DNA from: an uncultured Gammaproteobacteria bacterium | GTDB lineage: Bacteria > Patescibacteriota > Patescibacteriia > Patescibacteriales > WJLG01 | NCBI GenBank assembly: GCA_964547855.1 | Contig: CAZJPG010000005.1 | Location: forward strand, 3,445 to 67,444 | Reading direction: 5' to 3' | DNA: 64,000 bases | Part shown: positions 14,759-54,800 of the stretch, in pieces | How positions within the stretch are numbered: the first letter of the stretch is position 1 | Layout of the letters: the number at the start of each line of letters is the position of its first letter | Made by a program: the position numbers and the translations under genes | Notes under the pieces: generated by a model | What the model saw: the letters and a program-made list of their open reading frames with translations, nothing else | What the model was told of the DNA's origin: nothing | Databases searched by the model: none

Positions 14759-14777
14759 TTTGCGGATATTATGATCT

Positions 14778-22482: not shown

Positions 22483-22500
22483 TTTTTCAATACTAAAAAA

Positions 22501-25316: not shown

Positions 25317-26558
25317 ATGGCTACAGCTACAACCGAAAAAGTTCACAAGGCGAGCACCCATTGGGGAGCTCATGTAGACGAGATCGCTACAGCGATTGCC
25401 CACGAAGTGGCAAATGGCGGCAAGGTAGAACTGCGATCATTATTTGACATCGCAAGTCATGATGTCGAAATCGATGACCTGATCGGTGCCGGTGGAAGCT
25501 CACTGGACGAGCATATCAACGGCGGCGTTGGACGCAAAAAAAGTTCGGCTTTTGACATCGCCATCGAACAACTCGGATTGACCGAAAACTACCACGCTAA
25601 AAAGCTGGCGGAATTCGTCAACCGGACCGACAGTGGCGGCGGCACCGAACCGTTCGAGATGTCCTCTATTCTACAGGACATCCACAGGTCCCATCCCGGC
25701 TCAAGCGAAAACGGCATCAACTGGACCACCACCATTCTTCGTTGCTACTGGAAAGATACTGAGTATTTTAAGCGCCCAGCGCTCGAATGTGGAAAAATCT
25801 TCGAGAGCATTGGCGTCGCCTGGTTACTGTGCAAATTCGGCAAAAAGAAAAAAAGTGGAGTATACGAGCTGATCTCCAGTCATTCCACTGCCTCTTTTGC
25901 AAAAACGATCGAAGATCTCGGCGAAAAGAACGAAGTCCTCGCCTATCTGGCGAAATTCTTCGAGGATGGCTGTCAGCGCATGCTGCAACCGTTCGCGCTT
26001 CCACGCAGTATTTCGTCCGTTTATTACAAGAAAGGTGTTGTGACAGCCGTTAAACTGGCATTCGAGGCACTCGACGCCAAGTTCGATGCACAGGAAAAAT
26101 TCATCTCAGCTCAAAACGATCTTGCTGGGGCTGACGAATTCCGTGCTGGAAGATTCAATGCCATAATGGTGACGACCAACAATCGGGAGATGAAGAACTG
26201 GATCCTTCATTCAAGGAAAGATGTCGCGATCATCGCGATAAAAAATCCTTGGACGAACCAGGTCCAAATCTTCTCAAATGCTATGACCGGAGTCAGGTTC
26301 GAAGGACTCGCTGCGGCAATCCGCATTGAAGAAAAGACGCTGGCCGGCGAACCGATCGACGAACTTTTCGACAAAGAACTGGAAGCCGCTGGTAATTCGT
26401 GTGGCGTCGGCAACTGGTACTTCATCGTTCGTCGAAACGAAGATGGGGTGACCAAGGGGTCGTATATGCTGCTCAATGGCAGCGATTCATACCCGAACAT
26501 GGCTCCAACCAAGATTTCTTGGGAGCGCCTGAAAGAAATAATTATTTCCGTTTTTTAA
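25317..26558 (+). CDS. hypothetical protein (413 aa), compositionally distinct orphan
   Basis: Own promoter, SD and terminator. No motif recognised. GC-richer than its flanks: hand count 32/60 G+C at 25381-25440 versus 23/60 at 24901-24960. Four shadow ORFs in the track. Confidence 0.75.
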   Translation: MATATTEKVHKASTHWGAHVDEIATAIAHEVANGGKVELRSLFDIASHDVEIDDLIGAGGSSLDEHINGGVGRKKSSAFDIAIEQLGLTENYHAKKLAEFVNRTDSGGGTEPFEMSSILQDIHRSHPGSSENGINWTTTILRCYWKDTEYFKRPALECGKIFESIGVAWLLCKFGKKKKSGVYELISSHSTASFAKTIEDLGEKNEVLAYLAKFFEDGCQRMLQPFALPRSISSVYYKKGVVTAVKLAFEALDAKFDAQEKFISAQNDLAGADEFRAGRFNAIMVTTNNREMKNWILHSRKDVAIIAIKNPWTNQVQIFSNAMTGVRFEGLAAAIRIEEKTLAGEPIDELFDKELEAAGNSCGVGNWYFIVRRNEDGVTKGSYMLLNGSDSYPNMAPTKISWERLKEIIISVF

Positions 26559-29860: not shown

Positions 29861-30394
29861 ATGGATTTCAAAAACAACCCCAGAAAAAGGAGGCTTTCCT
29901 GGGACGAAATGTTCATGAACTTGGCCGTCATGGCCTCTAAAAGGACTTCGTGCAAATTCCACGAAACAGGCTGCGTCTATGTCGACAAAAACAAACGCAT
30001 CGTTTCAATGGGCTATAATGGACCGACTGAGGGAGACTACCATTGCATAGAAGATGGCTGCGCCAAGGTCGATGGAGATCCCAAGACCAAAGAGCTCAAA
30101 CGTTGCCGCGGCGCCCATGCCGAGATCAATGGCATAATCAATTGCCAAGACACCACTCGTCTGCGCGGAGCCACCATTTATACGGTCCTCTACCCATGCT
30201 ACGACTGCATGAAGGCCTTGAACAATGCCGGAATAAAAGAGATCGTCTACAAAGACACTTATGAAAGGATAAAAACTGGCGGTGAAGGCAAAGAAGAAGA
30301 AGACGAGGCCGGAGAGCTGGCCAAATCCCGAGGAATGATCGTTCGCCGTTATGAGGGCGAGGCTTTTTGTGATTTGGATTGCTCAAAAAAATAA
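29861..30394 (+). CDS. dCMP (deoxycytidylate) deaminase, ComEB family
   Basis: Zinc motifs GAHAEINGI and PCYDCMKAL; W(D/E)E.FM N-terminal signature (SWDEMFMNLA). Confidence 0.88.
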   Translation: MDFKNNPRKRRLSWDEMFMNLAVMASKRTSCKFHETGCVYVDKNKRIVSMGYNGPTEGDYHCIEDGCAKVDGDPKTKELKRCRGAHAEINGIINCQDTTRLRGATIYTVLYPCYDCMKALNNAGIKEIVYKDTYERIKTGGEGKEEEDEAGELAKSRGMIVRRYEGEAFCDLDCSKK

Positions 30395-30483
30395 TGAATA
30401 TTGAACAATGATCTAAAAAACAAAAAATTGTTTTGAAAATATTTTCAAAAACCATAATTCAGTATTCATAATTCAAAAAATTT

Positions 30484-31062
30484 ATGATTTTGGGCATAAA
30501 AGAACTACATAAACTTGTTAAAGAAATAAACTTGGTCGAAGGCCTCTGCGACCGCGAAATGAATAGTCCGGAAGGGGCTGGCTTCGATCTTCGCTTAGGT
30601 GAGATATATGAACTTGAAGGCGATGGTTTTCTGGGGGTCGAGGAAAGAAAGACACCAGATATAAAATTAGTGGCCAAAGCTAAAGCAGCCTGCCCTGCTG
30701 GCGAGGAAATAAGCGGCGTAGCCGATGAAACGGAAGACTCTTTTGTCTTTGAACCAGGCAAGTACTACCTGATCAAAACAATGGAAAAAGTAAACCTCCC
30801 TACCAACGTTTCTGGAATAATCTTTCCACGCACCACTATGTTCCGTTCTGGGTTAGGACTTTTTAATGGCGTAGTTCAGCCAGGATATAAAGGCGAGTTG
30901 ACTTTTGGCGTCTGTAATTTGGGTAAATCCAATATTAAAATATCTTTTGGCGCTCGCGTAGTGCACATAACTTTCCACGAAGTATTAGGCGAAGGAAATC
31001 AATATCGCGGCCAATGGCAAGGAGGGCGCGTTTCGACCAGCGGAACAGAAACGCAGATATAG
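30484..31062 (+). CDS. dCTP deaminase / dUTPase-superfamily protein
   Basis: ...GFDLRLGEIY...PGKYYLIKTMEKVNLP.NVSGIIFPRTTMFRSGL....VVQPGYKGELTFGVCNLG matches the dCTP-deaminase fold pattern. Confidence 0.8.
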   Translation: MILGIKELHKLVKEINLVEGLCDREMNSPEGAGFDLRLGEIYELEGDGFLGVEERKTPDIKLVAKAKAACPAGEEISGVADETEDSFVFEPGKYYLIKTMEKVNLPTNVSGIIFPRTTMFRSGLGLFNGVVQPGYKGELTFGVCNLGKSNIKISFGARVVHITFHEVLGEGNQYRGQWQGGRVSTSGTETQI

Positions 31063-31117
31063 CCATCTAAAGTGAGGAAATAAAAAATTCATTTTTAACT
31101 TTTAATCTCTAATCGCC

Positions 31118-32713
31118 ATGTTGACCACTAAAGATTTCAAAATAAATTTCCTGGGCATCAATCCGATCCTGAAGGACGAGGCTGGGGAATTAAATCCAGA
31201 AAGCATCTGTGCTTTAGGAGCTCTTCTCACCTTCAAAGGGAAATCTGCTGAAAATCTCAAAAAAGAAGCAGAAGAAAAGGGTCAGGACATGGCCAAGAAG
31301 GTTAAAACGATCCTCAAGAACTCATCGTTAAAAGGTCACGCCTCTATGGCCACGACCCCCGTGTTCTCGTTTTCCTATGAAGCATCCAAGATGATAGACT
31401 CTGCCTTAACCGGCATGGTCTTCTCCTCTTCCTTAATGGCTTCAGGTCGCCGCACAGATTCTTCTTATGAGGATATAGTTTATCCTTCATCGATATCAAG
31501 CAACGAAAAAGCCCTGGAAGTATATAAAAAAGCTTCGGAAAAAATACTTGATGTGTTTCACGAATTATTAGATGCTGGCATAGAAAAGGACCAAGCCTCG
31601 AAGATATTGCAGTATGGTGTTTACGGCACCGGCATAATCTCTTACAGTGTCGAATCGTTCAATACTTTAAAACGTGAATACGAAAGAGAGAAGGATTGGA
31701 TGCCGGAAGAAATAGGCTTCTTTATCGAAACGATAGAAAAAGAATTTAAAAAGCTTGGAGTGGACGCCCTCTTTAAATCCCGCTCCTTGGCTCCTCGCAC
31801 CACATATCCATATCCGAATATCTTTAAGAATCCAAAAACTACGAATTTGGCTCGTGAGATCGCCCAAGAAAGATTAGGTTCGGCCGAAAGCGAGATCGTT
31901 TCCATAAATGCATTGGCTACAAAGTCACTAAAAGAAAAAATGGACTCCTTAAGGATGGATCTGGAAGAGATCTATTCCGACAAAGCGAATCTTCTCAAGA
32001 ACTGGATGAAAACCATGGAAAAAAGAGCTGAAATCACTCGCGACTACCAGAACGCTCTGGATATAAAAATGATATCTCGCCTCTCTTGGCGCGTTTGGGG
32101 AGAAAGAAAGCGTCATCGCACCATGCCAATGACAGTAGATTCGATTTATTATGCCACTAAAAGGGCTTGTGATGTTTGGCAGGGATTGGCGACCAAGATT
32201 AAAAACGGCTCTTTAACCAAAGAAGAGGTTAAAAAACTCGACTTAGCCCTTAACATCCCTACTGCCATAGCCGCTGACGACGAGTTGTTAAAAAAATACA
32301 CTCAAGCAGTACTGACCTCAATTGAGGCTTACTCTGAAATGATCGAACTCGGCATCCCAGAACGAGACACCATTTTTGTCATTCCGAGAGCTGTTAGAAT
32401 AGAGGTCTTACAAGACGTCAATTTCCATAATTTGATCGCCGGATATTTTCCTTTGCGCCTCTGCAGTACGGCCGACGAACAGTTGCGCCGCGTCACCAGA
32501 GATGAAGCCGTCAAAATCAGGCAAAAGCTTGAGGATATGGACCTAGGTTGGTTAAATTGGCATATCGAACCAAAATGCTACAATACCGGATTCTGTCCAG
32601 AAAAAAGCTCTTGCTGGATAATCAAAAAGGCCGTCAAATTCTATGACGATAATTTCCACGAAGAAGTAAAGAATGATCTGGAAGGCATATTCGAAAAGGA
32701 ACTCGAAAAATAG
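31118..32713 (+). CDS. long (tandem, pseudo-dimeric) ThyX-like flavin-dependent thymidylate synthase homologue
   Basis: Two Thy1-like halves. Half 1 has KGHASMATTP and S-x4-S-G-R but no RHR. Half 2 has RKRHRTMPMTVDS and R..C.TADEQLR (compare R....AQ.EIR). The ThyX motif RHRxxSxxxxSxR is therefore split and degenerate. Confidence 0.65.
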   Translation: MLTTKDFKINFLGINPILKDEAGELNPESICALGALLTFKGKSAENLKKEAEEKGQDMAKKVKTILKNSSLKGHASMATTPVFSFSYEASKMIDSALTGMVFSSSLMASGRRTDSSYEDIVYPSSISSNEKALEVYKKASEKILDVFHELLDAGIEKDQASKILQYGVYGTGIISYSVESFNTLKREYEREKDWMPEEIGFFIETIEKEFKKLGVDALFKSRSLAPRTTYPYPNIFKNPKTTNLAREIAQERLGSAESEIVSINALATKSLKEKMDSLRMDLEEIYSDKANLLKNWMKTMEKRAEITRDYQNALDIKMISRLSWRVWGERKRHRTMPMTVDSIYYATKRACDVWQGLATKIKNGSLTKEEVKKLDLALNIPTAIAADDELLKKYTQAVLTSIEAYSEMIELGIPERDTIFVIPRAVRIEVLQDVNFHNLIAGYFPLRLCSTADEQLRRVTRDEAVKIRQKLEDMDLGWLNWHIEPKCYNTGFCPEKSSCWIIKKAVKFYDDNFHEEVKNDLEGIFEKELEK

Positions 32714-32735
32714 CCGCATTCGATAAAAAACAAAA

Positions 32736-32766
32736 TCGCCCCAAAGATCGGGCGCTTTTGTTTTTC
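32736..32766 (+). terminator. rho-independent terminator
   Basis: CGCCC-CAAAGAT-CGGGCG followed by CTTTTGTTTTT. Confidence 0.55.
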
Positions 32767-32871
32767 CTGAAAATATTTTAGCCGTTTAATTTTGACATAA
32801 TCCAGCTAATAGTTAATAATATTTAATTGGCAAAAACATAATTTAATTATTTATTTTTCATTTTCAAACAA

Positions 32872-33429
32872 ATGTCTGACAAGATCATCTTCGGCGTGAC
32901 CGGCGAAATGGCCTCTGGAAAAGGGGTCGTCGCCAAATACCTGGCTGAAAAACACGGCGCTAGAACCTATAAGTATTCAACACTACTACGAGAATTGCTT
33001 GATACCGCTGACATCGAAAAATCCCGCAAAAACCTAACTGTACTGGGAACAAAAGTCCGCGAGATGTTTGGACGATATGCGATGACCGATGTCTTGATCT
33101 GGCGCGTTCTAAACTCAGAAGAGAGAATAATCGTCGTCGAGGGCATTCGCCACAAAGACGAAGTCGAGGCCTGGAAAAGATTAAAGAACTTCGTTTTAGT
33201 AGCCGTAGAGGCTGATGCTAAAATTCGCTATGACCGACTTGTGGCTCGTAATGAAAACAGTGGTGACGGTACAAAATCCTTCGAAGAATTCGCCCATGAC
33301 TCCGAGGCTGGCACGGAAGTTGAGATCGTCGAGACTATCGCCGCCGCCGATGAACATATTAAAAACGAAACCACTCTAGAGGACTTTTTGTCTCAAATCG
33401 ATGCTTTGGTAGAAAAATATTCTAAATAA
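32872..33429 (+). CDS. P-loop nucleotide kinase (dephospho-CoA-kinase-like / UPF0200-like NMP kinase)
   Basis: Walker A GVTGEMASGKG; size and layout resemble the small (d)NMP kinases. Confidence 0.65.
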   Translation: MSDKIIFGVTGEMASGKGVVAKYLAEKHGARTYKYSTLLRELLDTADIEKSRKNLTVLGTKVREMFGRYAMTDVLIWRVLNSEERIIVVEGIRHKDEVEAWKRLKNFVLVAVEADAKIRYDRLVARNENSGDGTKSFEEFAHDSEAGTEVEIVETIAAADEHIKNETTLEDFLSQIDALVEKYSK

Positions 33430-33435
33430 AAACAT

Positions 33436-33987
33436 ATGCCAAAGATATATGCCGTAGTTGGGATGTGCGGCTCTGGAAAAAGCACTGTCGTCGATTATTT
33501 GAAGAAAAAATACGACTGGCCAACGATATATCTCGGAGCCATAACCTTCGATTGGATGAAAGAACGCGGCATAGAGGTTAACTATGAAAACGAAAAACAC
33601 GCCCGCGAACAGATCCGTCGCGAGAACGGTGGTCTTGGCGCCTATGCCCTCCTCTCCTTGCCAAAAGTAGAAGAATCCTTAAAAGACAACGACACGATCA
33701 TAATAGAAAGTCTCTACAGTTGGAGTGAGTATAAAATATTCAAAGAAAAATACGGGGATGATTTTAAAGTCATCGCCCCGATCGCCCCGCCGGCTGAAAG
33801 ATTTAAAAGATTGACCAGTAGAAAGAACGATCGTCCGATGAATTCCTGGGAAGAATTCCAAAGGCGCGATTATTCAGAGATAGAGAACATAGAAAAAGGA
33901 GGGCCGATAACTATGGCCGACTACCCAATACTCAACAATGGCGACATGAACGACCTTGGCTCTAAAATAGACGCTTTAAATCTGTAA
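33436..33987 (+). CDS. P-loop nucleotide kinase, paralogue of the preceding gene (UPF0200-like)
   Basis: Walker A VVGMCGSGKST, ...IIIESLYSWSEYKIFKE..., ...RL..R.NDRP....EF..RD..E. Confidence 0.7.
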   Translation: MPKIYAVVGMCGSGKSTVVDYLKKKYDWPTIYLGAITFDWMKERGIEVNYENEKHAREQIRRENGGLGAYALLSLPKVEESLKDNDTIIIESLYSWSEYKIFKEKYGDDFKVIAPIAPPAERFKRLTSRKNDRPMNSWEEFQRRDYSEIENIEKGGPITMADYPILNNGDMNDLGSKIDALNL

Positions 33988-33995
33988 AATTGACA

Positions 33996-34023
33996 ATACC
34001 ACCTTGCCGGTGGTATTTTTTTT
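33996..34023 (+). terminator. rho-independent terminator
   Basis: ATACCACC-TTGCC-GGTGGTAT followed by TTTTTTT. Confidence 0.7.
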
Positions 34024-34044
34024 ACAAAGCAAAGGAGGTGGCAA

Positions 34045-34200
34045 ATGAATGCCAAGAGAATTATTATAACTCTAGCCTTACTAGTCTTGCTATTAGGCAT
34101 AATAGCATGTTTGGCTAACTGGCTCTTTAACAGCGACGCCATCACCGTCTTCCTACGCGAAGCATATAGATCGCTCCGCTACTTCTCCAAAATACCCTAG
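34045..34200 (+). CDS. unlisted small membrane protein (51 aa)
   Basis: Perfect SD AAGGAGG 7 nt upstream of the ATG. MNAKRIIITLALLVLLLGIIACLANWLFNSDAITVFLREAYRSLRYFSKIP*. A terminator follows. Confidence 0.45.
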   Translation: MNAKRIIITLALLVLLLGIIACLANWLFNSDAITVFLREAYRSLRYFSKIP

Positions 34201-34224
34201 AACGATCGACTCAAGAGATCGATA

Positions 34225-34255
34225 GCGCACCTTTTTACGAAGGCGCGCTTTTTTT
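34225..34255 (+). terminator. terminator after the small ORF
   Basis: GCGC-A-CCTT ... AAGG-C-GCGC followed by TTTTTTT. Confidence 0.55.
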
Positions 34256-34289
34256 AAAAAAAAGACCGGAGCACCTTTGTGAACCGGTC
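34256..34289 (-). terminator. terminator of the minus-strand small basic protein gene
   Basis: On the minus strand: GACCGG-N14-CCGGTC followed by TTTTTTTT. Confidence 0.5.
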
Positions 34290-34320
34290 ATGCGTCGCTC
34301 AAATAAAATAGAGCGAAAAT

Positions 34321-34611
34321 TTATTTCTTTGATTGTCTTTTTTTCTTACCAGCCAATTTATTGACCTCATCAAGAGTGAGTCTTTCCGGGTAACAATGGT
34401 GATGCTTCCCAAAGCCAAGATACTCAACGTCATTATATCGACACTTGGGGTTTCTGGAATTACTCTTTTCGGTATATTCCATAACCCTATCATCCTCAAG
34501 GCGACAAAAATTTCTCTTGAAAATACCATTACTGGTAACGGCTCCGCGAGCTTTGAAGGCCCACTGTTTTCTTGAAAAGAAAAAGTATTCTTTTTCTCCT
34601 TTTTCCTTCAT
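34321..34611 (-). CDS. hypothetical small basic Cys/His-containing protein (about 96 aa from ATG 34611; the track ORF extends to TTG 34686)
   Basis: K/R-rich, ...FCRL...KCRY...GKHHHCYPE... suggests metal binding. Weak SD. Has its own terminator. Confidence 0.4.
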   Translation of the reverse strand: MKEKGEKEYFFFSRKQWAFKARGAVTSNGIFKRNFCRLEDDRVMEYTEKSNSRNPKCRYNDVEYLGFGKHHHCYPERLTLDEVNKLAGKKKRQSKK

Positions 34612-34798
34612 AAAAAACCTACGTTTTCGATTAGAAATGAATAAGAACTTGGGTTTTACCCTATCACTTTTTATTATTATTGTCAATAGATGAGGTGGTT
34701 TTACTGCTTGATTTTTACACCTCGACGCGCTAAAATTGAATAGCAGGTAGAATTTCCCTTATTTTTCTTTTTTATATTTTATTTTTTATACGAATATT

Positions 34799-36313
34799 AT
34801 GGAATATGACGTTATCATCGGCATGGAAATACATGCCGAGCTCAAGACAAAATCAAAAATGTTCTGCCGTTGTAGCAATATCGCCATAAGCAATGAGGAT
34901 CCGAACACTAGAACTTGCCCGATCTGTCTTGGACATCCAGGGACTTTGCCTTACCCAAACAAAGACGCCATCGATTGGACCATGACCCTCGGCTTGGGAT
35001 TGCATTGTCGTATCAATGAATACTCAAAATTCGACCGCAAGAACTATTTCTACCCTGATTTGCCAAAAGGGTATCAGATATCTCAATTCGAACTCCCCTT
35101 TTGCGCTGATGGCTGGCTAGACGTCGACGGTGAAAAAGTAGCAATAACTCGCATTCATCTTGAAGAAGACACTGGCAAGTCGACTCACCTTTCCGGCAAA
35201 GATTTCTCTTTAGTGGATCTTAATCGCGCTGGCACGCCCTTGGTCGAGCTTGTAACCGAACCAGTCATTAAGTCTGCTGAACAAGCCAAAAAATTCTGCT
35301 GGCGCTATCAGCAAACTTTAAGATATCTTGGCATATCCAATGCTGACATGGAAAAGGGAGAAATGCGCTGCGAGGCGAACATTTCGATTCAAGAAAAGGG
35401 TAAATGGGAATATACTGGCGATTGCCAGATCAAGCCGATCGGAGATTATAAGCTCAACCCAAAGATCGAAGTCAAAAATATCAACTCTTTCCGCGCCATT
35501 GAAAAGGCTATTCTTTATGAAGTCGAAAGACAGAAAAAAGCCTTGGCTGATGGAGAAAAATTGGTCCAAGAGACTCGCGGTTGGAATGAAGATAAAGGCG
35601 CGACCATTCACCAACGCTTCAAAGAGACCTCTGCCGACTATCGATACTTCCCAGAACCAGATATACCGCCTGTCGAAACTTCTGGCCAAAAGATCGAAGA
35701 ATTAAAAGCTAGACTTATCGAATTGCCGGCCGAAAAGAAAATTCGTTTCATGAACGAATATGGTTTTGACAATGAGACCGCCGAAATACTGATCAATGAC
35801 AAGAAACTAGCCGATTATGCTGAACATGTCGTCTCCGAACTCGAGGCTTGGATCGTAGCCACTGGCGATACTTGGGAGAGACAGAAGAATAAACTCTCGA
35901 AATTATCGGCCAACTGGTTGACCGGCGAACTTTTCAAACACCTAAATGCTAACAACCAAACCATAAAAGACCTAAAGATAACCCCAGAGAACTTCGCCGA
36001 ACTTATGACACTGGTCTATCAAGACAAAATAAACTCCTCTGCCGCTCAAACCATTCTGGGAGTCATGTATGAAAAAGGTGGCGACCCGACCAATATCATG
36101 GACGACATGGGACTCAAGCAAATGGACGATGACTCTGCTTTAGAGACCATAATAAAAGAAGTCCTTGCCAAAAACGAAAAGCAAGTGGCCGAATACAAAG
36201 CCGGCAAAACCACCGTCGCCCAATACTTAGTAGGTCAAGTCATGGCCGCCACCAAAGGAAAGGCAAATCCTAAAAAGGCACAGGAAATGGTTTCCAGAAT
36301 ATTGAATGCCTAA
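34799..36313 (+). CDS. gatB: Asp-tRNA(Asn)/Glu-tRNA(Gln) amidotransferase subunit B
   Basis: MEYDVIIGMEIHAELKTKSKMFC...CPICLGHPGTLP...RIHLEEDTGK... is canonical GatB, including the C-terminal YqeY-like domain. Confidence 0.97.
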   Translation: MEYDVIIGMEIHAELKTKSKMFCRCSNIAISNEDPNTRTCPICLGHPGTLPYPNKDAIDWTMTLGLGLHCRINEYSKFDRKNYFYPDLPKGYQISQFELPFCADGWLDVDGEKVAITRIHLEEDTGKSTHLSGKDFSLVDLNRAGTPLVELVTEPVIKSAEQAKKFCWRYQQTLRYLGISNADMEKGEMRCEANISIQEKGKWEYTGDCQIKPIGDYKLNPKIEVKNINSFRAIEKAILYEVERQKKALADGEKLVQETRGWNEDKGATIHQRFKETSADYRYFPEPDIPPVETSGQKIEELKARLIELPAEKKIRFMNEYGFDNETAEILINDKKLADYAEHVVSELEAWIVATGDTWERQKNKLSKLSANWLTGELFKHLNANNQTIKDLKITPENFAELMTLVYQDKINSSAAQTILGVMYEKGGDPTNIMDDMGLKQMDDDSALETIIKEVLAKNEKQVAEYKAGKTTVAQYLVGQVMAATKGKANPKKAQEMVSRILNA

Positions 36314-36346
36314 CAATGAGTCCCTGTCTTAATAACAAAAACAAAA

Positions 36347-36595
36347 ATGAACTCAAAAAATGCCTTTAACAATATAACCCAAGCGGCAATACCTTGTCTG
36401 ACCATTGGAGCTCAAATAGCCATCTCCATGAAATACCCGCAATACGGACTTATTATCGTCTTGGCGGCCCAACCTTTTTGGCTATATTCATCTTGGAAAG
36501 CCTACAAAGAGGCTAAGCAAATAGGCATGCTGATCAACACTATAATCTTTACCATAGTGACCGCAGCCGGAATAATAAATTATTGGTTCCTATAA
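36347..36595 (+). CDS. hypothetical small membrane protein (82 aa, 3 TM)
   Basis: ORF track. Its stop is 1 nt before the next start. Confidence 0.55.
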   Translation: MNSKNAFNNITQAAIPCLTIGAQIAISMKYPQYGLIIVLAAQPFWLYSSWKAYKEAKQIGMLINTIIFTIVTAAGIINYWFL

Positions 36596-36596
36596 T

Positions 36597-37028
36597 ATGG
36601 ACAATATTTGGCTCGTCTATGCCCTTCTTTCAGCTTTGACCGCCTCACTAGTGGCCATCTTTGGCAAAGTAGGGTTACAAGGCATCGACACTAACGCCGC
36701 CACGGCCATACGCGCCGTGATAATGACCGTCTTTCTTTTCGGCGTCATTCTTCTTCAAGGAAAACTAAACGATATCAAACCGATACTAGCCAATCACAAA
36801 GCCCTGACTTACATAATCCTGTCCGGAGTGGCCGGTGCTTTATCTTGGCTGTTCTACTTCTTAGCCCTCAAGGGCGGCAAAGTCAACCAAGTCGTGCCTA
36901 TAGACCGCTTGAGCGTCGTTTTCGCGCTTGTCTTGGCCTTTGTCATTCTAGGTGAAAAGATAAGCATAAAGGCAGCCATGGGGGCCCTTTTGGTACTGAT
37001 CGGCGGCATAATAGTCGCCCTGGGATAA
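36597..37028 (+). CDS. small EamA/DMT-superfamily transporter
   Basis: About 140 aa, 4-5 TM; ...LSALTASLVAIFGKVGLQGID...LSWLFYFLALKGGKVNQVVPIDRLSVVF... Confidence 0.75.
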   Translation: MDNIWLVYALLSALTASLVAIFGKVGLQGIDTNAATAIRAVIMTVFLFGVILLQGKLNDIKPILANHKALTYIILSGVAGALSWLFYFLALKGGKVNQVVPIDRLSVVFALVLAFVILGEKISIKAAMGALLVLIGGIIVALG

Positions 37029-37046
37029 TCAAAAAAGATCTATCAA

Positions 37047-37080
37047 AAACGGATGTCTAAATTCAGGCATCCGTTTTTTG
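37047..37080 (+). terminator. rho-independent terminator
   Basis: AAACGGATG-N12-CATCCGTTT followed by TTT. Confidence 0.7.
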
Positions 37081-37156
37081 TTATATTTTAAAGGTTTATT
37101 TACCAGTTGATTTATATTTTTAGCTTTCATATAATATCTATACCTACAAAATATAT

Positions 37157-37999
37157 ATGAATAAGCCGCTCATATCGGTCATAATCCCCTGTCATAACGC
37201 CGTTCCGTATATCAAGGATTCGCTCAAGTCTATGCTTGGGCAAACCTACGAGAACATCGAGATGATCTTAGTCGACGACAATAGCTCCGACGATTTGCCG
37301 TCCGCTATTAAGCCATATTTAGATAAATACCCCAACATCCGCTATTTCCGACTTCAGCAAGACGACCCAGAAAGGATCGGCCCAGACGGGACCGATATCA
37401 ACGCTGGCTGGATGTCACGCAACTACGGTATTGACATGGCCAGGGGCGAGCTTATCACTTTTCAAGACGACGACGACGGTTCTTGCAGCAACCGCTTAGA
37501 GTTTCAATATGAAATGATGGTTAGGCATGGAGTTAAACATGTCAACGTCTCTTGGCAGCGATACCGCGACGAATACAATGCCAAATATTTGGATTTCAAA
37601 CCGACCGACAAAGACATTATCGGGACAGAAGAGATATTGAAGCTAGCGAAAAAGACAGCGGGAAAATTATTCAAAAGACTATTTATGCGCGACGAGGCCA
37701 AGCACCCTATCATGGGCGCTCTGCATCGCTTTGAGCGCGAACACCTGCGCGACTGGACACCATACCCAGAAGCCGCCAACTCCCCTTTATTAAAACGCGA
37801 GGTCTTCGACAAATGTCGTTTCCATCAGCTATACGACCGCACCCGCCCATCGATAAAGGGTCGAGGATGTGACCGTAATTTCAATTTTTCCGTGGCCGAA
37901 ACTTTCAAAAGCAGCATAGCCATAAAAGCCCCACTATACCTTTGGCGAACGAAGTGGGAAAACTACGATTTTAAGGATGAAAAATACCGCCCCAAATAA
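37157..37999 (+). CDS. family 2 glycosyltransferase
   Basis: ISVIIPCHNAVPYIKDSLKSMLGQTY.NIEMILVDDNSSD and DDD (FQDDDDGS) motifs. Confidence 0.85.
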   Translation: MNKPLISVIIPCHNAVPYIKDSLKSMLGQTYENIEMILVDDNSSDDLPSAIKPYLDKYPNIRYFRLQQDDPERIGPDGTDINAGWMSRNYGIDMARGELITFQDDDDGSCSNRLEFQYEMMVRHGVKHVNVSWQRYRDEYNAKYLDFKPTDKDIIGTEEILKLAKKTAGKLFKRLFMRDEAKHPIMGALHRFEREHLRDWTPYPEAANSPLLKREVFDKCRFHQLYDRTRPSIKGRGCDRNFNFSVAETFKSSIAIKAPLYLWRTKWENYDFKDEKYRPK

Positions 38000-38101
38000 G
38001 GCGGTGTTTTTATTGACAAAAAAACATATAGACTGTTAAATATAGTTAATTTGCTCGTTTAAAAACTATCTTGAAATAAACTATTTACCAAGGGGGAATG
38101 A

Positions 38102-39592
38102 TTGAAAAACCTTATTTCCATTGAGCAGTTCTCTGCCAATGAATTATTCAACGTCATCGTGCCAGGGTGTATCGAAATGATACCAAGGGCACGTAAAATG
38201 CAGAGCGGTAAACACAAGTTGCCTGATTTTCGGGAAAGAAAACTAACCATCTTTTCAGTCGAACCTTCGACTAGAACCATCGACTCCTACATGGAAGCCT
38301 CTGGACTTCTTGGCTGGTCAGACCATCGCAGTCCACCACCAGACAACACCTCACTCATGAAAAGTGAGAGTTGGGCGGAAACTGCTAGAACCTGGGCCAT
38401 TCAAGGCGCTGGTGTGATAGCCATGCGAACCAAGATCGAAGGCGTTCAAAAGTTTCTAGCGAAGATACTAGAAGAAAAAGGCTTCAATGTTTCCATTCAA
38501 AATTGCGGCGACGGAGAACATGAGCATCCTAGCCAATGCATATTGGACTTAGTCACTATCAAACAAGAAAAGGGACGACTCGAAAATTTAACCATAGGCT
38601 TTTTAGGAGACCTCCGTTTCGGAAGAACCGTACACTCCTTAGTCAAAGCATTGTCATTGAGCAAAGGAATATCGTTAAGACTAGTATCCGCGCCTGAAAT
38701 GTCTCTGCCACGGCATTATTTAAAAAATTTCAAAGGAGAGGTCAAACAAAGCGAGGATCTTAAAATCCTGTCGGACTGTGACGTCATCTATGCCACCCGC
38801 ATTCAGGTCGAACGCTTCCCACCCGAAGTTCAATATGCGATAGCGAGAGCTAAAGAAAAATATCGAATAACGGAAGAAGTTTTAAAGGTGTTCAAGCCTG
38901 ACGCCATCATAATGCACCCCCTGCCCCATGCCAATGGATTTTCTCCAATGGCGATTAGGGATAAGCGCGTGGTAATACATAAACAATCGTGGTACGGGAT
39001 CCCGACCAGAATGTACTTGCTCAACAGAGGCTATATCAATCGCTTCCGAAAAGAATCACCGATACTAAGCTTGCCAAAAGGCAGTATGAAGACGATTCTG
39101 CATAAAGACCTTAAAGAATACTTGGAGGAAAAAAGTTCAAGAAATAAGGCTAGAAGATACTTTTCTCCGATCGACAATGGTACGGTGATAGATCATTTGC
39201 CGCGAGGATTCGGAGCAAAGATCAGGGAAGCCCTTGGAAAAGCCGGTCTTTTCGGAGAAGACAGTGTTCGACACACTATCGAGGATGTCCCATCGAAGAG
39301 AATGGGAAAAAAAGACGTCTTAGTACTTGATGGTGTATTCCTAAGCAAGGAAATGATGATCTCGATCGCCTCTTTCGCCGAAGGCGTGACTATTAACGTC
39401 ATTAAAGATGGCCGTTTTCGAAAATTAATCCTGGGAAAGCCGGGACGAATCGAAAATATCGGCCACTACCCGAACGATAACTGTATCACCAGACACGACC
39501 CGGAGGCATTCCCAATTTTTCTGCGCGTCGGTAACGGAGACGTAGAGTGCCACTACTGTGGACGCTCTTTCAAGAATAGTGAAATAAACTGA
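38102..39592 (+). CDS. pyrBI: aspartate carbamoyltransferase catalytic chain fused to regulatory chain (PyrB-PyrI fusion)
   Basis: TTG start with a GGGGGA SD. PyrB motifs SVEPSTRT, HEHPSQ, GDLRFGRT, IMHPLP. C-terminal PyrI motifs IDNGTVIDHLP and Zn-domain ...PNDNCITRHDPE...VECHYCGRSF. Confidence 0.85.
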   Translation: MKNLISIEQFSANELFNVIVPGCIEMIPRARKMQSGKHKLPDFRERKLTIFSVEPSTRTIDSYMEASGLLGWSDHRSPPPDNTSLMKSESWAETARTWAIQGAGVIAMRTKIEGVQKFLAKILEEKGFNVSIQNCGDGEHEHPSQCILDLVTIKQEKGRLENLTIGFLGDLRFGRTVHSLVKALSLSKGISLRLVSAPEMSLPRHYLKNFKGEVKQSEDLKILSDCDVIYATRIQVERFPPEVQYAIARAKEKYRITEEVLKVFKPDAIIMHPLPHANGFSPMAIRDKRVVIHKQSWYGIPTRMYLLNRGYINRFRKESPILSLPKGSMKTILHKDLKEYLEEKSSRNKARRYFSPIDNGTVIDHLPRGFGAKIREALGKAGLFGEDSVRHTIEDVPSKRMGKKDVLVLDGVFLSKEMMISIASFAEGVTINVIKDGRFRKLILGKPGRIENIGHYPNDNCITRHDPEAFPIFLRVGNGDVECHYCGRSFKNSEIN

Positions 39593-39608
39593 CCTTTAAA
39601 CGCCAAAA

Positions 39609-39637
39609 GTGGACCGGGCAAACCGATCCGCTTTTTT
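39609..39637 (+). terminator. terminator of pyrBI
   Basis: GTGGACCGG-GCAAA-CCGATCCGC (one mismatch) followed by TTTTTTT. Confidence 0.55.
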
Positions 39638-40566
39638 TATTTAAGAAAATTTTTCACTTTTCCTTCAGCCTCCGATAAACCACTAACCCAATCGATCGTT
39701 CGCTTCTTCTCCCAGCGCTTAAACCAAGTTATTTGACGTTTCGTGAACTGATTAATGGCACGATTCAAAAGCTCGAACATTTGATCATAGTCTATCTTTT
39801 CTTGTAGATACTGCGAGATGAACTTATACTCTAAGCCGAACTCCGTCAGGCGCTCCCAAGACAGACCGATCCTGTCATGAAGATTTGAAACCTCTTGAAC
39901 CATATCCTCCTTTTCCAACCTATCTTTTAAGCGTTTCTCTACCCTTTCTGACAGAACTTCCTTGTCATGTGTGATGCCAATTAACAAAAAATCATACTTG
40001 TCGCTTTTTTTATCGGCTACTTCAGAAGGACCTTTGTCATTGACCACTGATGCGACCTCAAGATAACGCACTAAGCGACGTTTATTGTTCTTGTCGCTAT
40101 TATTAAGTTTTGAAGCGAAGACCGGATTCTTTTCTTTCAACTCGTCGAACAACTCCTCCGCCGTCTTATCTTCCATTTTAGAGCGAGCCTCGATGTCAGG
40201 CTTAACGTCTAAAAGTTCATACCCTTCTACGACCGCTTCCAAATATTGACCAGAACCACCAACTATTATCGGCAACTTACCTCGACCCAGCACATCGTCG
40301 ATGGCATCATAGGCGGCCTTTTGGTAATCGGCCACCGAATATCTATCCACGGGATCGGCCACGTCTATTAAATGATATTTAACCTCTCCATATTCAGCCA
40401 AATCTTTGCCAGAACCCACATCCAAACCGCGATATACTTGCCGAGAATCGGCCGATATTATCTCGCCATCGAACTCGCGCGCCAAAGCTACGCCCAGGGA
40501 TGTCTTGCCTGACGCCGTCGTTCCTAAAATAACTATGACCTTATTTTTTTTATCTTTATCGCTCAT
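39637..40566 (-). CDS. miaA: tRNA dimethylallyltransferase
   Basis: VIVILGTTASGKTSLGVALAREFDGEIISADSRQVYRGLDVGSGK is canonical. Confidence 0.93.
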   Translation of the reverse strand: MSDKDKKNKVIVILGTTASGKTSLGVALAREFDGEIISADSRQVYRGLDVGSGKDLAEYGEVKYHLIDVADPVDRYSVADYQKAAYDAIDDVLGRGKLPIIVGGSGQYLEAVVEGYELLDVKPDIEARSKMEDKTAEELFDELKEKNPVFASKLNNSDKNNKRRLVRYLEVASVVNDKGPSEVADKKSDKYDFLLIGITHDKEVLSERVEKRLKDRLEKEDMVQEVSNLHDRIGLSWERLTEFGLEYKFISQYLQEKIDYDQMFELLNRAINQFTKRQITWFKRWEKKRTIDWVSGLSEAEGKVKNFLK

Positions 40567-40570
40567 TTTA

Positions 40571-41923
40571 TCATCTTACAAATTCACCTTCTATTCCAAA
40601 ATCGCCAGCCGACTTTATTTTAACCAGAACAAAACGACCTATTAATTCTTTATCTTTAGGCGCAGTAAAGACGACTGTCTTGTGTTGTCCGTTCTTACCA
40701 AGCCAATTCCCCTTTTTATTCTTACCATCGACCAAAACGACGACCTCCCTTCCTATGAACTTTTTGCCATTGGCCAAAGACGTGGTTCGCAGTATCTTCT
40801 CCAGCTCCGCATCACGCCTGACCTTCTCTTCCTTGCTGACATTGTCCTTCATCTTCCAAGCGGCCGTTCCTGGGCGTGGCGAGAATTGAGCCGTGTACGA
40901 CATATCGTAGCCAACCTTTTTCATTAATTTGGCGGTATTGGAAAACTGGGCTTTTGTCTCACCAGGAAAGCCGACGATTATATCGGTGGACAAGCCAACA
41001 TCTGGTATCGATCTTTTTATTTTATCTATTAAACCAAGATAATGCTTTACTGTGTATTTTCTATTCATGGCAGCCAACACCTTGTCATCACCGGCCTGAA
41101 CCGGCAAATGAATATAAGGAGTGAAGCGACCACCGCTAGCCGCGACGCGAATAAGCTCATCGCTCATATCCTTGGGGTGGCTAGTCGAAAAACGAACCCA
41201 ATAGTTCCTTGGAATACCCTTGCCTTTTTTGGTCGGTATAAGTTCTGGCAAATGTCCAACCGCCTCTAGCAATTCATAAAAATGTATCTTCTCCCCTATC
41301 TTCTTGTGCGGCAAATATCTTAGATCCTTTTTTGTAACCAAAGCTTTGTAGCTGTTGACGTTTTGAGCTATCAAATAAATTTCTTTATATCCCTTTTTTA
41401 TAAAACTGATCGCCTCATCTATTATTTCATGGGCAGGACGATATTGTTCGCGACCACGAGCATACGGCACGACACAGTAAGAGCAAAAATTATCACAACC
41501 ATTGCCGATCGGAATATAAATAGAGAACGGCGAAACAGCTTTTGGTTCGATATTAAGATAGTCCTTTTTTCCAAAATTCTTTTTCTTAAGGCCTAATTTT
41601 TTATAAAGATTTGGGAGCTCTCTGATCGGTAGCCAAATATCGACCCTGCCATCAAGCCTCTTGCGAACATCCTCTCTTTCCGAAAGACAACCGGCTAAAA
41701 TTATCTTAGCGGCTTTATTATCACCTTTAATGGCCGGTATGAGGCCATAATTGCGGTTCTCTGCCGTCTGCCTTATGCCGCAGGTGTTGAGGACCACCAC
41801 TCCGGCATCATTGCGTTCTTTGGCCTTTTTGAAGCCATAAAACTCCAAATACGAGGCTATGCGTTCGCTATCGGCCTCATTCATTTGGCAACCTATGGTT
41901 ATTATGTAATAAGTTCTCTTCAT
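40571..41923 (-). CDS. miaB: tRNA-2-methylthio-N6-dimethylallyladenosine synthase (radical SAM methylthiotransferase)
   Basis: UPF0004 N-domain (IGCQMNEADSE...NTCGIR), radical SAM CDNFCSYC, C-terminal TRAM. Adjacent to miaA. Confidence 0.88.
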   Translation of the reverse strand: MKRTYYIITIGCQMNEADSERIASYLEFYGFKKAKERNDAGVVVLNTCGIRQTAENRNYGLIPAIKGDNKAAKIILAGCLSEREDVRKRLDGRVDIWLPIRELPNLYKKLGLKKKNFGKKDYLNIEPKAVSPFSIYIPIGNGCDNFCSYCVVPYARGREQYRPAHEIIDEAISFIKKGYKEIYLIAQNVNSYKALVTKKDLRYLPHKKIGEKIHFYELLEAVGHLPELIPTKKGKGIPRNYWVRFSTSHPKDMSDELIRVAASGGRFTPYIHLPVQAGDDKVLAAMNRKYTVKHYLGLIDKIKRSIPDVGLSTDIIVGFPGETKAQFSNTAKLMKKVGYDMSYTAQFSPRPGTAAWKMKDNVSKEEKVRRDAELEKILRTTSLANGKKFIGREVVVLVDGKNKKGNWLGKNGQHKTVVFTAPKDKELIGRFVLVKIKSAGDFGIEGEFVR

Positions 41924-44323: not shown

Positions 44324-45853
44324 TCATTCTTTGATTATCACTTTTATTCTATTGACCAAGATCGGTGCCTTCTTCATGAACGGTGGCGAAAAACTGATCT
44401 TAAAATCGGAAAAGTTATCAGTATTGCTTAAGTAAGTTTTTATTTGAGCCTCATTCAAACCGACCAGCTTGTCCTTTTCGACCAAGGCATCCCCTTTCCT
44501 GGCTGCCAAGAATCCGACATAAGATATTTCGACCACCGCCTCACCGGATTTAAAATCGGTATTAGAAAGGCTGTATTCTGTCTCATTCTGGTCAAGACCC
44601 AAAACCTTTTTATCCGTCGGAGCCTTAGACAAAAACTTACCCTCGGCCAACTGTTCGGCGTGGCTCTTTTTAAAGGCTACGACATTCACGTTGGCGCTTA
44701 GCTCTATGGTGAATTGATCGACTTTATCTCCAGCCTCATTGCTTTTGTTTACATTTAAAGAGTTCTTGTCTATCTCAGAGATCACTTTATCGTAACCCTT
44801 GTAATTATCGCCGAACTGTCTAGCGACTTTATCGACCATAGAGGCCTTTAAGTCTTGTAACCCCTTGTCGATATCTATTTGCTGAATATATTTTTCGACT
44901 TGAGTGTTGTAAACAAAGGCTTCTTTGCTTTCGGCATAGACCTTATCCTGAAGACCGGACCAAAGCGCCGGCAAAGTGAACCTTGTCGGTCCAATGGCCA
45001 TTTCTTCGCTTGGCTCGTCAGTATATATCCCAACCTCCGCTTTGCCGTTAGGCGGTATCTCTACACGATCCTTTATGCGATAGACCTTTCCTTCTGGGCT
45101 CATCAAGCGCGTAGTGGCTATCAATATTTGTTTATCGTTCTTGTTGTTATAAATAATGGCCTTACCGGTTATTTCACGACCAAGCACCTTGGCGCCAGTG
45201 GCCTGAAAAGTTCCCTCTTCTTTTATTGGTATCTGTTCTACAGCGCCTTCTATAGCCTCCTTATTGGACGACAAAACATCTTTATTGTCTTGATTGACGA
45301 CCACGAAAGACGTCTTATCACTCTTACGTTCTTTCTTTGGCGTCACCTCGACCGTCAAAGAAACTACGTAAAAATAGAAAATCGACCCTAGTAACAAAAC
45401 TGTTAGGGCAATGAAAAACAAAGAGAGTTTTCTGTAGAGTCCGATCGACCTTGGCTGATCGATATAACCGTCCTTTTTGTCGTTGTCAGCGTCTTTTTCC
45501 TTCTTATCCTCCTTCTTTTCTTCTTTCTTGGAAGAGACTTCTTTTATTTTCACTTTCTCTTTTTCTTCCTTAGCGGTTTTTTTGGATGTTTTTTTAAAGA
45601 ATTCTCTATCCTCTCCGACGCTATCGAGTTTAACGGCATCCTCCCTGGCTGCAACGATATCCTCCTCGTGGCTATCTTTGCGGCCGTCCTTTTTACTGAC
45701 AACTCTTACTGGTAATTTAGTCTTTTTTGGCGTCTTTTTAACAGCAGACGTCGGTTCAGACTTCTTTTTACGAGTGCCAGCGGTCGCCCTCTTCTTTGCC
45801 GGCTTATCTTTCGCCGGCACTTCTTCTTTTTTAACGTCTTTTTCCGGTGCCAT
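44324..45853 (-). CDS. hypothetical membrane-anchored protein (509 aa) with a long K/E-rich N-terminal tail
   Basis: About 140 aa of lysine/glutamate low complexity, one TM (LSLFFIALTVLLLGSIFYFYVV), then a ~340-aa extracytoplasmic domain. Confidence 0.75.
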   Translation of the reverse strand: MAPEKDVKKEEVPAKDKPAKKRATAGTRKKKSEPTSAVKKTPKKTKLPVRVVSKKDGRKDSHEEDIVAAREDAVKLDSVGEDREFFKKTSKKTAKEEKEKVKIKEVSSKKEEKKEDKKEKDADNDKKDGYIDQPRSIGLYRKLSLFFIALTVLLLGSIFYFYVVSLTVEVTPKKERKSDKTSFVVVNQDNKDVLSSNKEAIEGAVEQIPIKEEGTFQATGAKVLGREITGKAIIYNNKNDKQILIATTRLMSPEGKVYRIKDRVEIPPNGKAEVGIYTDEPSEEMAIGPTRFTLPALWSGLQDKVYAESKEAFVYNTQVEKYIQQIDIDKGLQDLKASMVDKVARQFGDNYKGYDKVISEIDKNSLNVNKSNEAGDKVDQFTIELSANVNVVAFKKSHAEQLAEGKFLSKAPTDKKVLGLDQNETEYSLSNTDFKSGEAVVEISYVGFLAARKGDALVEKDKLVGLNEAQIKTYLSNTDNFSDFKISFSPPFMKKAPILVNRIKVIIKE

Positions 45854-51428: not shown

Positions 51429-52160
51429 CTATCCCCTGACCTCGCACTCTTTCACATGTTTGCGCCCAATGACGGCAAAACGCTCCATTTGTTCCTCAGG
51501 GAAGCCAGGCTTGCCGACAAGCTCGCCATCGATCATATCGGCGTCCGATTTAAAACGCTGCAAGAACCACTTATCAGCCCCCTCTATCATCTTCCCCATG
51601 TTCTCTATCGCCTCTTCATCTAAAAATCCGGGCACACAAGTAGTGCGGAATTCATAAGGCAGTCCGCTCTCCATAATAATCATAACACTTTCTTTGATTT
51701 TACCAAAATCGAATTTTGTACCAGTCGTCTTTTCATATCTATCTTCGTCGCTTTTGATGTCCATAGCCAAATAATCGACCAAGTTGTCGGACAATACTTT
51801 CTTCAACATCTCCGGATTAGTGCCATTAGTGTCGAGCTTGATATCGAAACCCAGAGCTTTTATCTTGGTCAAAAAATCCGGCAGATCATGATGTATCGTC
51901 GGCTCTCCGCCAGTCACCACCACTCCATCCAATTTACCCTTGCGCTCTTCCAGAAAATGAAAAAGGCCAGCCTCGGTTAAAGGAGTTTGGCCTTCCTCTT
52001 CCCCGCCTTTCGACGGAGTATCTTCACTCTTGCCATTCGGCACGAGCATGGGGTTGTAACAGAAGTTGCAGTTAAATGTGCAACCTATGGTGAAAACGAC
52101 GGCGGCTAAGTGACCACTATAATCTATCAGGCTCAATTTTTCCAAACCACCTATTTTCAT
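51429..52160 (-). CDS. nrdG: anaerobic ribonucleoside-triphosphate reductase activating protein (radical SAM)
   Basis: LSLIDYSG....VVFTIGCTFNCNFCYNP cluster motif; position downstream of nrdD. Confidence 0.9.
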   Translation of the reverse strand: MKIGGLEKLSLIDYSGHLAAVVFTIGCTFNCNFCYNPMLVPNGKSEDTPSKGGEEEGQTPLTEAGLFHFLEERKGKLDGVVVTGGEPTIHHDLPDFLTKIKALGFDIKLDTNGTNPEMLKKVLSDNLVDYLAMDIKSDEDRYEKTTGTKFDFGKIKESVMIIMESGLPYEFRTTCVPGFLDEEAIENMGKMIEGADKWFLQRFKSDADMIDGELVGKPGFPEEQMERFAVIGRKHVKECEVRG

Positions 52161-52217
52161 ATACTTAGGCGGACCGGCTTAATGGCCGATCGCCTAAACC
52201 GATCCGGATTTATTTAC

Positions 52218-52364
52218 TTAGCAACCGCAATCTCTAACGTCGTAGGTCTTCCTATCGACGAACTCGGCTTTCTTCCCTTTGTTCCAGTTCTTGACAGGCG
52301 TAAGCCAACCGACGACGCGGCTGTAGACGATGCATTCCTGTCTCTTGGTCTTTGTAGGGCTCAT
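52218..52364 (-). CDS. nrdD: detached C-terminal glycyl-radical segment of NrdD (48 codons; unlisted ORF or downstream exon)
   Basis: MSPTKTKRQECIVYSRVVGWLTPVKNWNKGKKAEFVDRKTYDVRDCGC carries the NrdD C-terminal signature YSR.xG[YW]...WN.GK..E...R..Y. Same strand as nrdD. Confidence 0.75.
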   Translation of the reverse strand: MSPTKTKRQECIVYSRVVGWLTPVKNWNKGKKAEFVDRKTYDVRDCGC

Positions 52365-54666: not shown

Positions 54667-54800
54667 GGGGTTTGGTTGAATTTCGAATTTTGAATTCTGA
54701 CGTCCTAAATTTAACTCCTTGTTGGAAACGTCTTGATCGTCGTTTCCTTTAAATTCGGGCAGAACTGAAATTTTCTATTCTTGAAAGTAAAATTTTGATT

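Follow-up and report, generated by a model that had tools for sequence, protein, structure and literature searches.

A divergent Patescibacteria clade of fused catalytic–regulatory aspartate carbamoyltransferases: architecture, residue conservation and gene context

Introduction

What an aspartate carbamoyltransferase (ATCase) complete with its nucleotide-binding regulatory part might do for a bacterium of reduced genome, when encoded apart from the other genes of de novo uridine monophosphate (UMP) synthesis, is the question posed by a gene, here termed pyrBI, in a 64,000-nucleotide stretch of DNA (the window) from contig CAZJPG010000005.1 of assembly GCA_964547855.1, deposited as an uncultured Gammaproteobacteria bacterium and placed by GTDB within the Patescibacteriota. 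An initial annotation, made from the sequence alone, had described the product as the catalytic and regulatory chains of ATCase fused into one polypeptide of 496 residues, had pointed out that a covalent link alters the quaternary and allosteric architecture available to the enzyme, and had suggested that a lone fusion of this kind may have a different role. The gene proved to be real and ordinary in kind: the fusion was known before, and what is new is the divergent Patescibacteria clade to which this example belongs. It probably encodes a working, canonical, nucleotide-regulated class B ATCase in which PyrB carries PyrI at its C-terminal end, the two being linked by a short connector predicted to be structured. 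The remaining interest lies in the orphan question in a reduced-genome bacterium, in the missed or truncated annotation of the clade, and in a variant zinc site.

Domain architecture and predicted fold

A domain check with profile hidden Markov models found, from the N-terminus onwards, OTCace_N, OTCace, PyrI and PyrI_C within a single open reading frame (ORF), thereby bearing out the fusion as first described, and the ATCase and PyrI motifs originally quoted for it were recovered from the translation. The features concerned are as follows.

38102–39592, + strand: pyrBI fusion gene, 496 residues, TTG start and TGA stop (ORF list; four Pfam domains in order; full-length homologues at 33–82% identity)
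38105–38566, + strand: OTCace_N, carbamoyl-phosphate-binding domain, residues 2–155 (PF02729, 58.0 bits against a gathering cutoff of 29.9)
38585–39022, + strand: OTCace, aspartate-binding domain, residues 162–307 (PF00185, 66.6 bits against a cutoff of 29.4)
39038–39163, + strand: connecting segment, residues 313–354 (AlphaFold model)
39164–39415, + strand: PyrI allosteric (nucleotide-binding) domain, residues 355–438 (PF01948, 56.5 bits against a cutoff of 25; aligned to Escherichia coli 1d09_B)
39446–39586, + strand: PyrI_C zinc domain, residues 449–495 (PF02748, 28.3 bits against a cutoff of 23.4)

Sequence searches of the PDB matched the N-terminal 310 residues to ATCase catalytic chains, the best being that of Pyrococcus abyssi (1ml4, E 1e-44), and the C-terminal 140 residues to regulatory chains at E values of about 1e-15 (1pg5_B, E 7e-16, and 1d09_B). 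Foldseek comparison of the catalytic half with solved ATCase catalytic chains gave template modelling (TM) scores of 0.85–0.89 and root mean square deviations of 2.3–2.9 Å. Neither the sequence nor the Foldseek searches of the PDB returned a chain spanning both halves, no structure of a fused ATCase having been solved. The AlphaFold model, which is of the monomer and was built on the clade alignment, had a predicted local distance difference test score (pLDDT) of 90.5 and a predicted TM score of 0.87, and the connector was predicted to be structured, with a strand at residues 328–336 and a helix at residues 337–345 (pLDDT 70–94). For this type of enzyme, which has no solved structure, the clade provides a model of high confidence in which the connector is predicted to be structured.

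Adjacent and sometimes overlapping pyrB and pyrI genes occur in many genomes, including others that belong to the candidate phyla radiation (CPR), a circumstance in which a frameshift error or faulty assembly might merge two genes into one. That explanation was rejected and is scarcely credible here: ~100 independently assembled proteins (NCBI, JGI, ENA and Logan) show the two halves in one uninterrupted ORF, joined by a connector of ~45 residues that is conserved, and the connector is itself predicted to be structured.

The nearest solved sequences for both halves are archaeal ATCases, namely those of P. abyssi (1ml4) and Sulfolobus acidocaldarius (1pg5), together with Methanocaldococcus jannaschii (2rgw), but in these the catalytic and regulatory chains are separate and usually encoded within pyr gene clusters. 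The nearest unfused database homologues were DPANN archaeal PyrB proteins, at about 40% identity. The E. coli enzyme, (PyrB3)2(PyrI2)3 (PDB 1d09 and 1q95), resembles the window protein in having both component proteins and the catalytic and effector residues, its zinc domain aligning residue for residue and its catalytic fold superimposing with a TM score of about 0.85; it differs in that genes and chains are separate, and identity in the catalytic part is ~27%.

Active-site and effector-site residues

Conservation was assessed in an alignment of 96 fused proteins with a concatenated E. coli PyrB plus PyrI reference, the PyrB portion of which was checked and found identical to PDB 1q95_A. The carbamoyl-phosphate-site residues S56, T57, R58, T59, R109, H142 and Q145 of the window protein corresponded to E. 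coli S52, T53, R54, T55, R105, H134 and Q137; among the fused proteins T53 was retained in 82/96, and each of the other six in 93–96. The cross-subunit residues S84 and K87 corresponded to E. coli S80 and K84, and the aspartate-site residues R175, R233 and Q235 to R167, R229 and Q231, the latter three and K84 being conserved in 94–96 of the 96 proteins. R167, R229 and Q231, together with cross-subunit K84, are the residues that distinguish ATCase from ornithine carbamoyltransferase (OTCase), and OTCase models gave the window protein 59 bits against a cutoff of 281. Equivalents of E. coli R234 and R296 were also present, as was the sequence H272-P-L-P275 in the aspartate domain, which maps to E. 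coli P266–P268. Catalytic-site residues overall were retained in 82–96 of the 96 fused proteins, mostly in at least 91, and every substrate-binding residue was kept in the window protein, a point on which the initial annotation had made its identification depend.

In the regulatory part, the equivalents of E. coli regulatory-chain (r-chain) residues G15, D19, H20, K56 and K94 were kept in 88–96 of the 96 proteins, and in the window protein are G360, D364, H365, K404 and K441, the last of these sitting just outside the Pfam PyrI boundary; N432, the equivalent of r-chain N84, was likewise kept. Departures from E. coli were found at R56 (I in the window protein), H106 (T), E239 (A), R269 (H) and r-chain K60 (V), all of them variable across the fused proteins, and at r-chain C109 (Y), which is considered with the zinc site. 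The stretch after HPLP had been cited earlier as unusual, and a histidine does stand there in place of arginine, but the change is not specific to this gene, arginine being found in just 17 of the 96 fused proteins.

On the reading judged probable, the N-terminal 310 residues would be enzymically active and catalyse the conversion of carbamoyl phosphate and aspartate to N-carbamoyl-L-aspartate, which is the step that commits a cell to making UMP de novo, at active sites that would be shared between adjacent chains of a catalytic trimer because the equivalents of Ser80 and Lys84 are retained. The C-terminal 140 residues would bind nucleotide effectors and would mediate dimerisation. With trimers formed by the catalytic parts and dimers by the regulatory parts, six fused chains would build the equivalent of a c6r6 holoenzyme, an arrangement reported for the fused enzyme of Thermotoga maritima (see below).

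Distribution and ancestry of the fusion

Homology searches returned ~30 full-length fused relatives at 33–82% identity, those with named sources being Patescibacteria or Kerfeldbacteria. When 1.84 billion cluster representatives were searched exhaustively, both halves stood in one protein in 70 of the 150 highest-ranking clusters (50% identity), and a search with P0039, which belongs to another group of fused proteins, found the fused form in 120/120 of the best matches, with named sources that included Woesearchaeota, Myxococcota/Deltaproteobacteria, Acidobacteria and others. Reviews of class B ATCases describe their regulatory subunits as 'fused or unfused' (PMC4581275, PMC6022934), and both cite the allosteric fused ATCase of T. 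maritima (Chen et al. 1998, J Bacteriol 180:6389). The fusion is therefore not novel, on both of the grounds that the initial annotation had itself named as counting against it: proteins of this architecture abound in public sequence databases, and one was characterised as early as 1998, so that as a fusion the gene is of little importance.

The T. maritima enzyme and the NCBIfam model NF009916, built for a 'bifunctional' catalytic subunit/regulatory subunit ATCase, share with the window protein a single chain in which a catalytic part and a connector are followed by the PyrI allosteric and zinc domains, the window protein being about 30 residues the shorter. Residues 37–495 aligned with profile positions 38–522 of NF009916 in one stretch covering both halves; membership of that family was rejected, as the score was 149 bits and the cutoff is 800. 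The model was also run on eight further fused proteins, which scored 127–269 bits, none of them at the cutoff.

Neighbour-joining trees of the catalytic domain (100 bootstrap replicates) recovered the window protein's Patescibacteria clade, with Kerfeldbacteria members in the basal position, as monophyletic with bootstrap support of 100/100. The fusion in this clade is consequently old and has been inherited vertically, and it has remained at a fixed position in the genomes described below. A single origin of all fusions, hinted at by the first neighbour-joining tree, was dropped on bootstrap values of 25–28. A recent fusion of a CPR pyrB–pyrI pair was likewise rejected, the bootstrap value for unfused CPR genes as the sister group being 0; unfused CPR pyrB sequences grouped instead with other bacterial class B enzymes.

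Because synonymous sites were saturated and dN/dS (the ratio of non-synonymous to synonymous substitution rates) was not computable, divergence is given as the proportions of non-synonymous (pN) and synonymous (pS) differences. Compared with two relatives, pN was 0.12–0.22 against a saturated pS of 0.74–0.97 in both halves, and both are thus under strong purifying selection; the connector was the fastest-diverging segment, with a pN of 0.38 in comparison with locus L006. What emerges is a well-supported group of fused ATCases in the Patescibacteria that evolves fast and that current equivalog models miss.

The GatB protein encoded in the window was closest to proteins named as Patescibacteria group and Candidatus Falkowbacteria, at 66–86% identity. 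A metagenome scan for relatives of the fused gene yielded three short contigs only; a scan of genome collections returned mostly ordinary pyrI genes, with two close relatives among the matches listed and the unfused CPR operons described below as a by-product.

Two relatives, L013 and L014, are titled 'uncultured Gammaproteobacteria bacterium' although the fused genes in them, which are 82% and 69% identical, respectively, belong to the Patescibacteria clade, and the taxonomic label of these metagenome-assembled genomes is probably wrong. In a Woesearchaeota (DPANN) locus, L096:10001-11494, the 10 kb around a fused ATCase likewise hold no further pyr gene, making this a second group of reduced-genome symbionts with the fused form as a lone gene. 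A different fused ATCase, P0037 (534 residues), lies amid purine genes at L011:5318-14983 and in L012, in the order PurE, PurC, IMPDH, PurA, PyrBI, GuaA, PurH, an unusual mixture of pyrimidine and purine genes.

Genomic context and the remaining pathway genes

Annotation of 54 window ORFs with Pfam gave the gene order nusG, rplK, rplA, DUF975, dCMP deaminase, dCTP deaminase/dUTPase-like, ThyX, two P-loop kinases and gatB, followed by a small membrane protein, EamA, GT2, pyrBI, the convergent miaA and miaB, parB and parA; pyrG, nrdD, nrdG, nrdR and dnaE lie farther off. The position of pyrBI between a glycosyltransferase gene and miaA, its own terminator, and the distance to pyrG were all as originally described. 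Relevant features are listed below.

29861–36313, + strand: block of dCMP deaminase, dCTP deaminase/dUTPase-like, ThyX, two P-loop kinases and GatB (Pfam; same order in L006, L008, L004, L093 and L095)
37157–37999: GT2 glycosyltransferase, upstream neighbour of pyrBI (Pfam)
37986–38014, + strand: hairpin and U-run terminating the upstream glycosyltransferase gene (-12.7 kcal/mol, z -3.7; terminator-like site in the scan)
39605–39638, both strands: intrinsic terminator common to the convergent pyrBI and miaA genes, a hairpin at 39605–39635 followed by U7 (RNA fold)
39637–40566, - strand: miaA, downstream neighbour of pyrBI (Pfam)
39637–41923, - strand: miaA and miaB, convergent with pyrBI (Pfam; also in L004, L006, L093 and L095; in L008 only miaA was recognised)
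5708–7396: pyrG, 30.7 kb from pyrBI (Pfam)

The terminator shared by pyrBI and miaA folded at -16.5 kcal/mol (z -3.3) on the + strand and at -18.3 kcal/mol (z -3.2) on the - strand. Since the upstream glycosyltransferase gene has a terminator of its own, pyrBI looks to be a separate transcription unit in this genome. The core order dCMP deaminase–DCD–ThyA/ThyX–kinase/Tmk–gatB–pyrBI–miaA–miaB recurred in L006, L008, L004, L093 and L095, the PyrBI proteins of which are 36–74% identical to that of the window.

Several results weigh against a canonical ATCase in a complete pathway. The window protein scored 207 bits with the NCBIfam PyrB equivalog TIGR00670, under the cutoff of 236.95 (values within the clade ran from 280 bits for Kerfeldbacteria P0032 down to 200–235), and 75 bits with the PyrI equivalog TIGR00240, far under the cutoff of 148.55. 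At the zinc site three of the four ligands are kept (C461, C483 and C486), with Y456 at the first position, that of E. coli r-chain C109. V408 replaces r-chain K60, which in E. coli is involved in discrimination between cytidine and adenosine triphosphates, at a variable position occupied by lysine in 21/96 fused proteins. In agreement with the initial annotation, Pfam analysis of the 54 ORFs found no carA/B, pyrC/D/E/F or carbamate kinase gene in the window, and phmmer searches of its six-frame ORFs of at least 50 residues with CPR seeds found no carA/B or pyrC/D/E/F. The same approach found other pyr or car genes at 0/10 loci of the gatB–pyrBI–miaA subclade in the flanking DNA examined. The seeds, taken from CPR pyr operons and verified with Pfam, comprised carA, carB, two pyrC, pyrD, two pyrE, one pyrF and OTCase; of two further seeds from L001, the pyrE-like one was identified by a weak NCBIfam match and pyrF by a precomputed Pfam label. 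De novo nucleotide synthesis is, moreover, reported to be missing in about 93% of Patescibacteria genomes.

These observations raise an alternative in which the other de novo genes have disappeared from the lineage and a nucleotide-regulated ATCase has been kept for a non-canonical role, the roles suggested being export or import of carbamoyl aspartate in exchange with a host, draining or buffering of carbamoyl phosphate, or running of the reaction in reverse, by phosphorolysis of carbamoyl aspartate, to feed a carbamate kinase. It draws on the isolation of the gene at the ten loci and on the contrasting presence of unfused CPR pairs in full operons, on the apparent status of pyrBI as its own transcription unit, on its fixation beside a block for pyrimidine interconversion, that is, synthesis of thymidine monophosphate (dTMP), with no biosynthetic genes adjoining, on the general lack of de novo synthesis in the phylum, and on a catalytic domain divergent enough to fall under the TIGR00670 cutoff. 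It is nevertheless judged unlikely, although deserving of some weight. All of the aspartate- and carbamoyl-phosphate-specific residues and, r-chain K60 apart, the effector-site residues are retained, as a normal pathway enzyme requires; Pfam analysis of the window revealed neither a carbamate kinase nor another partner in the vicinity; and the ATCase equilibrium lies strongly towards synthesis. As the DNA covered amounts to at most 6–10% of any genome of roughly 1 Mb, the absence of scattered pyr genes means little.

The basal relatives point the same way. In the Kerfeldbacteria loci L001 and L094, the two in which both flanks could be seen, pyrF, a pyrE-like gene and pyrBI are consecutive. 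Unfused CPR genes occur in operons with the order carA–carB–pyrB–pyrI in Uhrbacteria (L089), gatB–pyrB–pyrI–pyrC–OTC (OTCase-like)–pyrE–pyrF in Magasanikbacteria (L065:3597-10211), and pyrB–pyrI–pyrD–...–pyrC–pyrE in Patescibacteria L090 and L091. These pairs share phylum and both functions with the fused gene, but they are two genes, set in pyr operons with carAB, pyrC, pyrD, pyrE and pyrF, and are not sister to the fused clade; the L065 pair lies directly 3' of gatB, an adjacency also seen in the fused clade although the pyrB lineages are not sisters. Since other CPR members have complete pyr operons, the pathway exists in the phylum, and both this and the Kerfeldbacteria arrangement support a working pathway enzyme, the remaining genes of which would then lie elsewhere in the genome.

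A still more specific proposition, that in a Falkowbacteria-like lineage carbamoyl-phosphate synthase and pyrC–F have been lost and pyrBI has persisted as a true orphan, strongly selected over hundreds of millions of years and fixed beside the dTMP genes, is regarded as doubtful. If the gene were a true orphan across whole genomes, it would provide a testable case of a single biosynthetic step retained in an obligate symbiont, with a role other than in the organism's own UMP pathway, such as carbamoyl aspartate exchange with a host or carbamoyl phosphate handling.

Zinc ligands

Comparison with the four-cysteine zinc set of E. coli (C109, C114, C138 and C141) upheld the earlier remark that histidine and tyrosine stand where the first ligand should be, Tyr456 following His455, and showed the change to be peculiar to this genome: the first ligand is cysteine in 95/96 fused proteins, with tyrosine here alone. 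The codons concerned are as follows.

39464–39469, + strand: CAC TAC, encoding His455-Tyr456, with loss of the first zinc-ligand cysteine (codon comparison)

At the equivalent position L013, L014, L006, L008, L095 and L097–L099 have a cysteine codon, TGC or TGT, after an arginine, lysine, isoleucine or threonine codon (for example CGC TGC), and CAC TAC differs from the L013 sequence by two neighbouring G-to-A changes. His455 may stand in for the lost ligand, in which case the change is compensated; otherwise the zinc domain is weakened. The variant is a natural test of whether a covalent link between the chains relaxes the need for the zinc domain.

The loss could also be taken to mean that a pathway remnant has begun to decay, the gene being on its way to loss in this genome only. 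The cysteine-to-tyrosine change is unique among the 96 fused proteins and all close relatives, the first ~45 residues are cut off in the relative L014 by an in-frame stop, and the public annotation of the gene (P0001) is N-terminally truncated, all of which would fit. This interpretation is considered very improbable, given that the ORF is intact and provided with a good ribosome-binding site and terminator, that every catalytic residue is in place, that pN is far under pS, that the truncation of P0001 reflects gene calling, and that the neighbouring arginine-to-histidine change could provide a new ligand.

Start codon, upstream signals and public annotation

The TTG start proposed initially was sustained: TTG at 38102 is the earliest start available downstream of the in-frame stop in the window ORF list, and L013, the closest relative, has a TTG start at the same residue, preceded by GAAGGAGGA in the equivalent place. 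Upstream features are as follows.

38090–38097, + strand: Shine-Dalgarno-like AAGGGGGA, purine-rich, 4 nucleotides before the TTG (sequence reading)
38013–38018, + strand: perfect TTGACA hexamer in the 102-nucleotide intergenic region, possibly a -35 element on weak evidence (sequence reading)

A promoter scan of the region gave no full promoter match and nothing above chance. The public NCBI protein for the gene, P0001, has 433 residues and begins at the internal Met64, omitting the region at window 38102–38290 and with it both the helix at the N-terminus and STRT, the carbamoyl-phosphate motif. Full-length homologues and the TTG start of L013 support the longer, 496-residue form as the likely product, and the truncation of P0001 is a gene-calling choice with no mutation involved. 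Public entries for members of the clade are more generally either mislabelled 'regulatory subunit' or shortened, as in this 433-residue form without the STRT motif.

In the 69%-identical gene at L014:9000-10708 the in-frame stop falls just before the STRT motif, so that the ORF loses the first ~45 catalytic-domain residues; it has 414 residues, and the database protein P0011 has 391.

Other features of the window

ORFs of 369–577 residues without a Pfam match at E <=0.001 were found at 9903–11549, 13649–16298, 20878–24234, 25317–26558, 44324–45853 and 55683–57095.

Within the conserved block at 29861–41923 and its counterparts in relatives, ThyA plus dihydrofolate reductase (DHFR) and ThyX interchange at one position. 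The ThyX at 31118–32713 has 531 residues, ~2 times the length usual for this protein, and matches the Thy1 domain over two separate stretches; it may thus be a flavin-dependent thymidylate synthase that has undergone internal duplication or extension. The proteins in L004 and L093 have 569 and 458 residues, respectively. An anaerobic ribonucleotide reductase set consisting of nrdD, a radical-SAM activase and nrdR lies at 51429–55274, 12 kb downstream of pyrBI, and with pyrG and the dTMP block makes the window unusually rich in nucleotide-interconversion genes.

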